Shown here: one piece after another, positions 50,806 through 52,058 of the stretch
Position numbering within the stretch: position 1 is the first letter of the stretch
Layout of the letters: each line of letters starts with the position of its first letter
Assembly (NCBI GenBank): GCA_905250055.1
Contig: CAJNOF010000392.1
Location: 49,031 to 102,379 of the forward strand
Reading direction: 5' to 3'
Length of the DNA: 53,349 bases
Source of the DNA: Rotaria sp.
Lineage: Eukaryota
Translations under genes and position numbers: made by a program
Notes under the pieces: model-generated
What the model was told of the DNA's origin: nothing
Databases searched by the model: none
What the model saw: the letters and a program-made list of their open reading frames with translations, nothing else

Positions 50806-51066
50806 GTGTGTTTGGGTGTGGGTGTGGGTTGGGTGAGGGTGTGGGTGTGGGTGTGGGTGGGGTGTGGGTGTGGGTGTCGGGTGGTGTGGGTGTGGGTGCG
50901 GGTATGTGGCTGTAGATCCTCTCTTCATTCCTTCCACACCCACACCCACACCCACACCCACACCCACATCCACACCCACACCCACACCCACCCCACACCC
51001 ACCCACACCCACACCCCACACCCACACCCACCTACACCCATACCCACACCCACCCACACCCTCAAA
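50806..51066. repeat. Large head-to-head telomeric-repeat palindrome. About 130 bp of (TGTGGG)n-like G-strand repeats is followed by a 20-bp spacer, then about 120 bp of (CCCACA)n C-strand repeats.
   Basis: gtgtgtttgggtgtgggtgtgggttgggtgagggtgtgggtgtgggtgtgggtggggtgtgggtgtgggtgtcgggtggtgtgggtgtgggtgcgggtatgtggctgtagatcctctcttcattccttccacacccacacccacacccacacccacacccacatccacacccacacccacacccaccccacacccacccacacccacaccccacacccacacccacctacacccatacccacacccacccacaccctcaaaccc. ORFs 50741-51135 and 50806-51175 are repeat-translation artefacts. Confidence 0.9.
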
Positions 51067-51184
51067 CCCGAACCCTTTCGATCCGAATGAAACAAAGAAA
51101 TGGCAACGATACTCGGATTTTGAAAATGAATACATCGAAGAATCGTTTCAACGAAAAGAGCACGAAGTACATTGAAGCGAGTAT

Positions 51185-52058
51185 ATGATCGACTTCAAGC
51201 ATAATGTTCAATACAAGGCAAACGATAAAGATAAACAAAGGCCAGTAAAACGTGGAGAGATTAGTGTGGATCAGTATGCGAGAGCAGAACGGTTTTCATA
51301 TCTGGAAAGAGCAGTTCGATCGTTCCACACTAGTGAAGGTTATTTTAGCCCTTTTATTGAACAGTGGAGAAATCGAAATCAAAGAATTTGTAATGCAGAT
51401 GAGCCAGACTGGTCGGCTATAGCAAAACAAGCTGCTGAAGGTAAAAATTACCAAATAAAATTTGCAACACTTTAAAGGATCGTCACATCTGTAAGTATTT
51501 TAAAAGAAGGTATTCTGCTCAATCAACAATTCGATGCTCAGCAAATGGTTGAACAACTGGAAAAATGGAGAGATTCGTGGGAGTTGCAAGCATGTGCTGC
51601 TCGCCTTTATGCTGCTGAATCATTTCTTTATAAATTGCTCAACTCAACACTAAGAAATAAAGTAATGAGTAAAGCCAATACATTGGGACCTTTCTGCTAC
51701 CTATTATGGATGTATTTACGCTTTGATGACGATATAGGGCGTTCAACACTTTATCGTGGTGCAGATCTTACAGCTGAGATGATTGAAGAGTACAAAAGAG
51801 CTGTCGGATCAGTAGTTATATTCCCGGCATTCACATTTACATCAAAAAAGCTAGATATGGCAGAAAAATTCGGTAATACTCTATTTATCATTAAACTTTT
51901 TTTATTTACCACATGCTCATGACATTTCATATCTGTCATACTATCCAGGTGAAGCAGAAGTGTTATTAAGCGCTAACTATCCTTTTGTGGTAAAGCAAAT
52001 GAAGACTCACCCTCAAAATAGTAGTCAATTGTTAATTTATTTGGAACAGCCTATGTAG
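51185..52058 (+). CDS. Mono-ADP-ribosyltransferase of the R-S-E (cholera-toxin / C3 / iota / VIP2-like) class, a toxin-type ART domain protein with no signal peptide. 3-exon model: 51185-51440, 51507-51872 and 51949-52058.
   Basis: The spliced product is MIDFKHNVQYKANDKDKQRPVKRGEISVDQYARAERFSYLERAVRSFHTSEGYFSPFIEQWRNRNQRICNADEPDWSAIAKQAAE/EGILLNQQFDAQQMVEQLEKWRDSWELQACAARLYAAESFLYKLLNSTLRNKVMSKANTLGPFCYLLWMYLRFDDDIGRSTLYRGADLTAEMIEEYKRAVGSVVIFPAFTFTSKKLDMAEKFG/EAEVLLSANYPFVVKQMKTHPQNSSQLLIYLEQPM*. The motifs appear in canonical order: Y-x-x-L-N-x-x-L-R (alpha-3 NAD helix: FLYKLLNSTLR), then about 38 aa to the catalytic Arg (TLYRG), then FTFTS (STS-like), then G-E-A-E-V-L-L (the ExE ARTT motif followed by LL, as in actin-targeting ARTs). 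Introns: 51441-51506 (66 nt) and 51873-51948 (76 nt), GT..AG and phase-consistent, anchored by ORFs 51185 and 51545. Caveat: the STS-to-ExE spacing is only about 13 aa (about 35-45 is usual), so the PN-loop region may be deleted or the STS assignment may be wrong. Confidence 0.6.

Follow-up and report, generated by a model that had tools for sequence, protein, structure and literature searches.

A telomeric-repeat palindrome at the truncated 5' end of a predicted WWE-ART pseudogene in a bdelloid rotifer of the genus Rotaria

In a 53,349-nucleotide stretch of a Rotaria sp. contig (CAJNOF010000392.1, positions 49,031 to 102,379; hereafter the window, in which position 1 is its first letter), we found a gene fragment encoding a WWE domain followed by an ART domain (NAD:arginine ADP-ribosyltransferase), the 5' end of which is cut at a block of telomeric repeats. 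We propose, with an overall probability of about 0.72, that a telomerase-capped break truncated this WWE-ART gene, that the ends were then joined head-to-head, and that the remaining copy subsequently decayed. This proposal builds on the truncation point, the identity of an in-frame TGA, the other lesions of the gene, the orientation of the repeats and the recurrence of such palindromes, all of which we observed and describe below. Taken alone, it is an unremarkable pseudogene from a lineage-specific family, and a clean, base-resolved case in which a bdelloid host gene was cut short by telomere-repeat addition. It matters more widely as an entry point, since the same convergent junction recurs around the ART genes of Adineta and Rotaria, where one such junction demonstrably marks a deletion.

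The frame of the ATG codon at 51185-51187, which an earlier note on this DNA had taken as the start of the ART gene, stays open upstream through a single TGA (51173-51175) as far as position 51062. The earlier note had made this point of frame, and translating 50924-51475 bore it out by yielding ...PTPSNPNPFDPNETKKWQRYSDFENEYIEESFQRKEHEVH*SEYMIDFKHN..., where the TGA (asterisk) is the only stop. The ORF listed from position 50864 consists mostly of translated telomeric repeats (PTPTPT...) and is not protein. The stretch between the repeat block and the TGA, on the other hand, is coding sequence and no chance ORF, because the Pfam WWE match (PF02825) crosses the TGA and because BLASTN homology to the paralogues begins at 51062.

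The domain content was assessed on a conceptual protein built from position 51065 on, with the stop masked, the intron taken out and the frame corrected. The WWE domain (51089-51253, plus strand, interrupted by the TGA) matched profile positions 8-67 of 67, with an E-value of 3.9e-9 for the whole conceptual protein, and of 2.6e-10 for the N-terminal 71 residues alone (41 bits versus a cut-off of 21.1). It is incomplete, in that its first Trp strand ([VI]-W-[FLM]-[WY]-Q, which precedes SNPNP in the homologues) is replaced by telomeric repeats. The frameshift-corrected protein also matched the ART family PF01129 (E-value 1.5e-9; 37.9 bits versus a cut-off of 22.3), while the PF03496 score fell slightly under its cut-off (22.3 versus 23.4 bits). 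The catalytic triad of the ART domain is not intact in frame: the Arg of the LYRG motif is present, the STS motif reads FTS, and the E-A-E motif is present but in the +1 frame. On the plus strand, the locus comprises an exon 1 remnant (51062-51440), an ancestral intron of 54 nt (51441-51494), and an exon 2 (51495-52061) that encodes the ART (R-S-E) domain, as delineated by the PF01129 match, three-frame translation, alignment and reconstruction, and terminates with a TAG stop (52059-52061). An AATAAA motif, read in the sequence 65 nt past this stop (52126-52131), may serve as a poly(A)-like signal.

The database search returned 33 relatives, all of them from bdelloid rotifers (Adineta vaga, A. 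steineri, A. ricciae and several Rotaria) or metagenomes, and the full-length ones comprise about 305-385 residues with the WWE domain preceding the ART domain. The bdelloid WWE-ART proteins, for example I4U23_011507 (P0002) of A. vaga, the 'NAD(P)(+)--arginine ADP-ribosyltransferase' of A. steineri and A. ricciae and the 'WWE domain-containing protein' of Rotaria, share this two-domain architecture with the window copy, at an amino-acid identity of 37-68%. They also have in common with it the position of the intron (54-56 nt, phase 1 after AAQ/G) and the LYRG and GE-x-EVLL motifs. The best matches of the conceptual ART protein reach 63-67% identity, as do those of the neighbouring ORF at 47108-47719. 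The two closest relatives, which lie on the A. vaga chromosome CP075492 (locus L001) and on a metagenome contig (locus L002), share 75-77% nucleotide identity with the window copy; BLASTN gave 76.9% over 928 nt to L002-L007 and 75.1% over 964 nt to L001.

Both BLASTN and MAFFT showed that the homology to L001 and L002 starts at 51062, i.e. at the first base past the C-strand repeat block, which corresponds to nucleotide 58 of the coding sequence and to codon 20. Therefore, 57 nt of coding sequence (19 codons), the promoter and everything upstream are missing. The gene was thus once longer and lost its 5' end at the telomeric block, as the earlier note had supposed; the upstream ORF does directly abut the C-strand repeats, but the boundary lies at 51061|51062 and not at about 51066. 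The telomere-like string TCAAACCCGAACCC at this place is genuine coding sequence, which encodes the S-N-P-N-P residues conserved in the homologues. In the protein alignment of 15 of the 33 homologues, the window sequence begins at the S-N-P-N-P-F-D of the family. The homologues possess the N-terminal extension for which a comparison of paralogues had been suggested: they start 19-25 residues further upstream of SNPNP with M-A-x(n)-K-K-x-[VI]-W-[FLM]-[WY]-Q, and not at MIDFKHN. Opposite the Met of MIDFKHN, the homologues have Val, Ile or Lys (GTA/GTT at the nucleotide level), and the ATG at 51185 is therefore an internal codon and no native start. What has been lost is not a signal or translocation domain, which the earlier note had envisaged, since only 19 poorly conserved residues and the first Trp strand of the WWE domain are gone.

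A single T>G change in the Leu codon at position 56 of the family accounts for the TGA, CAT TTA AAC in both L001 and L002 being CAT TGA AGC in the window. The corresponding alignment column (EVH-L-NDY) holds Leu in at least 90% of the aligned homologues and a hydrophobic residue in all 15 of them. The intron has kept its GT donor, and its acceptor has changed from AG to AA at 51493-51494 (cAG|GTATTTT or tAG|GTATTTT in the paralogues; tAA GTATTTT in the window). Retention of the intron leads to a premature end (...FATL*), whereas the removal of 51441-51494 restores AAE-G-ILKEG. Further downstream, ...AHDISYLSYYPGEAEVLL... (the E-x-E motif, GEAEVLL) no longer lies in frame, owing to a +1 insertion within 51897-51909, which contains a run of seven T; in the STS motif, Phe (TTT, 51836-51838) has replaced the first Ser. 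Once 51441-51494 and one T are removed, the locus yields a full-length family-like protein that ends with ...LIYLEQPM*. Unlike the working bdelloid WWE-ART members, and as befits no functional gene, the window copy is thus without codons 1-19 and carries the nonsense codon 56, the dead AG>AA acceptor and the +1 frameshift, together with the STS>FTS substitution. The dN/dS ratio, computed on explicitly reconstructed exons, is 0.24 for the window copy versus the paralogues and 0.17 between the paralogues; therefore, most of the divergence accumulated while purifying selection was acting, and the decay is recent. Judged from its sequence, this member of the bdelloid WWE-ART family is a pseudogene that has lost its 5' end and decayed recently.

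The TGA had alternatively been viewed as a read-through or selenocysteine site, in which case a recoded TGA would allow the locus to encode a functional WWE-ART protein. The presence of only one in-frame stop, preceded by a well-preserved frame, speaks in that direction. Against it, none of the 15 aligned homologues has Cys or Sec at this nearly always Leu-occupied site, an Rfam scan of the whole window yielded no SECIS element and no other family at its gathering score, and the L002 paralogue normally terminates at a TGA. Moreover, decoding the TGA would leave the start and the first 19 codons missing, the acceptor at AA, the +1 frameshift in front of the E-x-E motif and STS changed to FTS. 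Recoding of the TGA is ruled out by the Leu of the homologues, the missing SECIS, the TGA stop of L002 and the three other lesions, and we regard a functional recoded gene as exceedingly improbable. The TGA is best taken as a disabling mutation (TTA>TGA) of a near-invariant Leu codon, which was the other possibility raised in the earlier note.

The repeats that cut the gene are (TGTGGG)n/(CCCACA)n, which correspond to the bdelloid telomeric unit, TGTGGG (PMC7943196, PMC8494291). With at most one mismatch, the 12-mer of this repeat matched 33 times in the window versus 0.01 expected. The window is AT-rich, with 25-40% G+C. At the truncation point, a G-strand block of about 17 degenerate (TGTGGG)n units (50810-50913, plus strand) caps the left segment; it is followed by a non-telomeric spacer of 19 nt, agatcctctcttcattcct (50914-50932), and by a C-strand block of about 21 (CCCACA)n units (50933-51061, plus strand). 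The resulting palindrome (50810-51064, 255 bp) folds into a hairpin of -110 kcal/mol (z = -11.8 versus shuffled sequences).

Read on the minus strand, the junction with the ART fragment is ...GGGTTCGGGTTTGA|GGGTGTGGG, or, in a longer view, ...AAAGGGTTCGGGTTTGA|GGGTGTGGGTGGG. The (CCCACA)n present on the sense strand at the 5' side of the gene is (TGTGGG)n at the 3' end of the antisense strand, so that the G-strand points away from the retained DNA. This polarity matches what is expected if telomerase extended the gene-side broken end. The last retained bases belong to the conserved S-N-P-N-P codons and are TG-rich on the antisense strand; we infer from this composition that they may have served as a seed for telomere addition. 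The G block at 50810-50913 caps a unique sequence that differs from the gene side, and the two flanks contain no inverted copies of each other, which rules out fold-back replication as the origin of the palindrome. No empty-site allele or orthologue of the window locus emerged from the protein search, the exact-pattern scan or the protein-guided scan of metagenome contigs.

A scan with telomeric 9-mers revealed that every sizeable telomeric block of the window sits in a convergent unit, made of a G block, a short spacer and a C block. Seven such units occur in the window, at 39220-39290, 40358-40470, 40509-40561, 40988-41036, 50613-50663, 50810-51064 and 52451-52536. The unit at 50613-50663 is a small palindrome lying 146 bp to the left of the large one, and that at 52451-52536 is a mini-palindrome situated 3' of the gene fragment (G block 52451-52505, 12-nt spacer, C block 52518-52536). 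Consequently to this arrangement, the ART fragment (51062-52450) has a C block on its left edge and a G block on its right edge. Related loci are similarly organized: A. vaga has convergent units about 520 and 900 nt downstream of its WWE-ART paralogue; A. steineri has about ten units per 20 kb, and its intact WWE-ART gene has one unit 150 nt upstream and another one 45 nt downstream; and the same convergent arrangement occurs at an ART locus of Rotaria socialis (L016), while two control R. socialis loci contained no convergent units. WAP-like genes lie near the window palindromes and near the A. vaga paralogue, and their proteins are not obviously orthologous.

We then considered the pairs of neighbouring blocks separated by at most 80 nt in the window, in A. 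vaga L001 and in A. steineri L008 and L012. The G block precedes the C block in 22 pairs, and the remainder consists of two C-to-G pairs, which are simply neighbouring units, one G-G pair and one C-C pair. Within a unit the tail-to-tail orientation never occurs, all 22 units of the bdelloid loci sampled being convergent. Such a constraint would follow if both arms were G-strands added to 3' ends and then joined, because only the G-to-C order is then possible. The junctions between flank and block are also biased, as A|GGG(T/C)G is found at 17 of the 44 junctions and GA|GGGTG at nine of them, the ART junction included. Since random repeat phase would give roughly 6% per junction, which is a rough estimate, these 17 cases suggest a preferred start register. 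The spacers vary from 8 to 47 nt and differ in sequence. A purine-rich spacer motif, which might have indicated read-through into the telomerase RNA, was not significant, in that 5 of 21 spacers had at least seven purines out of eight versus 2.3 on average under the null (P = 0.07). The palindromes showed no target-site duplications.

As a step towards understanding how such units arise, it is worth considering the A. steineri locus L008, which carries its own comparator. The region 16056-19641 duplicates 5097-8692 (90%), as 19714-21057 does 11500-12840 (97.8%); the copies are colinear and in the same orientation. Between the two downstream copies stands a 72-bp convergent palindrome, in place of the 2.8 kb of the sister copy, which comprise three palindromes and an intact WWE-ART gene. 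The right flank of the 72-bp palindrome is cut at a point where the sister copy is continuous. On this sequence comparison, the 72-bp palindrome is the scar of a local deletion. By contrast, the homology between two A. steineri assemblies of 99.8% identity breaks off precisely within a G block; therefore, the partners at such junctions can also change.

Together, these data lead us to the following history. A double-strand break would have taken away the promoter and the first 19 codons of the gene. Telomerase would have added (TGTGGG)n to the gene-side 3' end (antisense strand, TG-rich ...GGGTTCGGGTTTGA), and the other broken end would likewise have been extended with (TGTGGG)n. The two ends would then have been joined head-to-head via the 19-nt filler, generating the 255-bp hairpin-forming palindrome (50810-51064). 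The promoterless and startless copy would subsequently have gained the TTA>TGA, the acceptor AG>AA, the +1 frameshift and the STS>FTS changes, the truncation presumably preceding these point lesions. That telomerase made the repeats is suggested by the identity of the repeat and by the preferred A|GGGTG register, and both ends probably stem from one internal break repaired with a deletion. We give about even odds to this combination, in which an internal break was extended by telomerase at both ends and rejoined with a deletion. We favour it over an internalised chromosome end because convergent palindromes are common at bdelloid ART loci and because, in A. steineri, the flanks are colinear around a 2.8-kb deletion. 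On this analysis, the site need never have been a stable chromosome terminus. The earlier note had proposed a break healed by telomere addition and later internalised: the orientation of the repeats does fit healing of the gene-side end, a step common to both histories, while the A. steineri deletion makes the stable chromosome end less likely.

That other history would be as follows: the gene was broken by a terminal chromosome deletion, healing turned the broken end into a working telomere, and this chromosome terminus was later internalised by telomere-to-telomere fusion with an unrelated end or fragment that bore a telomere. The orientation of the repeats and the exact homology boundary fit it equally well; the fragment 51062-52450, with its C block on the left and its G block on the right, looks like a linear piece capped at both ends; the left flank has no recognisable relation to the gene; the loss of homology inside a G block between the two A. 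steineri assemblies implies that junction partners can differ; and head-to-head 'fusion ITS' (interstitial telomeric arrays) are a recognised class (PMC8537989). However, the blocks are short (12-132 nt), and the presence of seven palindromes in the window, some of them just 38-146 bp apart, would require many serial cycles of fusion and breakage. Besides, the sole case with a comparator (L008) has colinear flanks, as does a local deletion, and not a junction of unrelated ends. We consequently hold the fusion of chromosome ends to be unlikely. Less probable still, and by our estimate very improbable, is an origin of the palindrome as a small mobile element of the fold-back type, with arms resembling telomeric repeats, which would have landed in an intact gene, so that the missing 5' part of the gene would lie just to the left. 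The architecture of the units is recurrent, as it would be for an element, and the left flank ends with ...AGT CTC TGG TTT ACA (S-L-W-F-T), which resembles the S-I-W-F-Y-Q of the family (TCT ATC TGG TTT TAC CAA in L001). Yet this resemblance is at the level of TG-rich chance, for the junction-adjacent 'SSLWFT' ranks only 269th among 70,359 six-residue windows scored with an N-terminal motif PSSM, the 8- and 12-residue versions of the motif fail, and a local DNA alignment of 50600-50810 with the 5' regions of L001 and L002, in search of the missing 57 nt, scored at shuffle level. For these reasons, the left flank is at most a putative former upstream neighbour of the gene. The CTCTGGTTT resemblance was put down to TG-rich chance. 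In addition, the region where the N-terminus is expected has no ATG and contains two stops, the spacers share no significant motif and vary both in sequence and in length (8-47 nt), and the palindromes show no target-site duplications. Nor did permissive Rfam scans (E-values up to 10) of 50400-52700 and 39000-41200 detect the hammerhead ribozyme that marks the 3' end of Athena/Terminon elements before (ACACCC)n, or any other family; they returned only generic miRNA-like hairpin matches, well under threshold. As for an assembly artefact, i.e. a chimeric or fold-back read that would conceal an intact gene, long simple-sequence inverted repeats are error-prone in assembly and this one folds at -110 kcal/mol; the flanks are nevertheless different unique sequences with no inverted copies, this architecture recurs in three other species, across four independent assemblies, and the other lesions of the gene are independent of the junction, so that we give such an artefact hardly any credence.

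Bdelloid rotifers offer precedents for the capping of broken DNA by telomeric repeats. In their subtelomeres, 5'-truncated retroelements are capped by telomeric repeats, with host genes trapped in between (PMC6431247, PMC3846280), and a recent study of A. vaga lines described neotelomeric repeats at the breakpoints of deletions (PMC13564844). As in these instances of de novo telomere addition (Athena/Terminon caps and A. vaga neotelomeres), unique sequence ends abruptly in the window at a short (TGTGGG)n array, the G-strand of which runs 5' to 3' away from the retained DNA (PMC6431247, PMC3846280, PMC13564844). The difference is that here a host gene is truncated and its cap is joined head-to-head to an opposite cap at an internal site.

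Similarly, vertebrate genomes contain short interstitial telomeric arrays inserted at breaks, and three of 41 TERC-ITS loci are head-to-head, an orientation explained there by a second telomerase at work on the opposite side of the break (PMC8537989). These arrays resemble the present units in having telomeric repeats at internal repair junctions, with deletions and filler nucleotides (PMC8537989, PMC2246262, PMC7215372). The vertebrate ITS is usually a single one-directional array, whereas 22 out of 22 units are convergent in the bdelloid loci sampled here. Unlike for the vertebrate TERC-ITS, no flank derived from the telomerase RNA emerged here, the spacer motif test being non-significant. 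The fusion ITS (ancestral telomere-telomere fusion, as at human 2q13) also display two head-to-head telomeric arrays. They are rare and join whole chromosome ends, whereas the units described here are tiny (35-255 bp), clustered and, in one case, bordered by colinear flanks.

We tentatively propose, at somewhat less than an even chance, that the convergent mini-palindromes (G block, 8-47 nt of filler, C block) are a common, orientation-invariant scar of double-strand-break repair in bdelloids, whereby telomerase would extend both 3' ends before their joining, usually with loss of DNA. The convergent form as the rule in the bdelloid loci sampled may be new. If they are scars, these palindromes would provide a readable genomic record of past breaks, and they would imply that genes are routinely truncated or deleted at dynamic loci such as WWE-ART (57 nt of coding sequence and the upstream region in the window; a whole gene in A. 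steineri). If such scars prove general, they would link telomerase with internal-break repair in animals that survive massive DNA fragmentation, and they would supply a simple sequence signature with which to map past breaks genome-wide. The preferred register, (T)GA|GGGTGTGGG, could also reveal the alignment region of the template of the uncharacterised bdelloid telomerase RNA. Variant repeats (TGAGGG, TGGATG and CCTACA) are present as well.

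The telomeric blocks are structural-variation breakpoints, because the homology between L008 and L009, corresponding loci of two A. steineri assemblies which are 99.8% identical across 14 kb, ends completely and exactly within the G block of a convergent palindrome (L008 ~1891; L009 ~1386), of which the spacer, the C block and the right flank are common to both. Furthermore, the region 16056-21057 of L008 (CAJNON010000324.1) is a tandem segmental duplicate of the region 5097-12840; in the duplicate, a 72-bp convergent telomeric palindrome takes the place of a 2.8-kb stretch that includes an intact WWE-ART gene, and identity to the parent is 90% in one half but 97.8% in the other.

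Besides the large palindrome abutting the WWE-ART pseudogene, the window carries six more convergent telomeric mini-palindromes, each comprising a G block, a spacer of 11-37 nt and a C block, at positions 39220-39290, 40358-40470, 40509-40561, 40988-41036, 50613-50663 and 52451-52536. Four of them are grouped inside 1.8 kb, the closest two being separated by 38 bp, and no solitary telomeric block longer than 14 nt was found in the window.

The starts of the telomeric blocks tend towards a single register. Among 44 flank-to-block junctions drawn from the window, the A. vaga locus L001 and the A. steineri loci L008 and L012 (window examples: 51062-51070, 40468-40475 and 52534-52540), 17 pass on the G strand from an A into GGG(T/C)G and nine from GA into GGGTG, frequently in the form TGAGGGTGTGGG. 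Variant telomeric units, namely TGAGGG, TGGATG and CCTACA, were also recurrent. Both the junction register and the variant units may result from the alignment of the bdelloid telomerase template on non-telomeric ends. It was also noticed that the sequences immediately to the right of two separate palindromes (window 41037-41054 and 50661-50678) have TCCTCAGCATC(C)ATG in common. This is probably not a common flank but telomere-like sequence in degenerate form, the opposite strand reading TGAGGA / TGGATG.

As for the A. vaga ART paralogue (I4U23_011507 / P0002; L001 10001-11713), its annotated 3' end seems to be mis-spliced. The annotated protein terminates in ...EEG...NNTK and its model extends beyond a telomeric palindrome at ~11563-11625, while the genomic sequence encodes intact the family-like C-terminus ...EEEVLLRANFYLTIQDVKIHPQDSRKYIIHLTESH, followed by a stop codon. 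Directly beyond the palindromes downstream of this paralogue lies a WAP-domain gene (L001 12840-13304). The window has a small two-exon gene on the minus strand (39640-39975) encoding a secreted cysteine-rich WAP-like protein (MRFLSLFLLF...CCKRDRHCASDEKCCRLACGCNNRC...), placed in a 1,067-bp segment with palindromes at either side; orthology between the two proteins is not obvious.

Two minus-strand ORFs of the window (44834-45232 and 47108-47719) are probably exons of a single gene, which has no Pfam match and no near-identical match in the protein database; its relatives occur only in Rotaria and metagenomes, the best being 63% identical (Rotaria sp. Silwood1). The minus-strand ORF with a TM2 domain (18427-19098; E 5.5e-15) and the plus-strand ORFs carrying fragments of VIT and VWA domains (30780-32735) are ordinary host genes lying farther away from the telomeric clusters.

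The other repeats of the window are a block of short AAATGGTCAGTA repeats with inverted copies (37816-38586) and a tandem array with a unit of ~61 bp rich in CGCGTTT/AAACGCG motifs (43275-43640 and 42274-42327). Immediately left of the palindrome cluster, a 111-nt inverted repeat (49740-49850 and 50064-50174; 75% complementary, arms 213 nt apart) is possibly a small element of the fold-back or MITE type.
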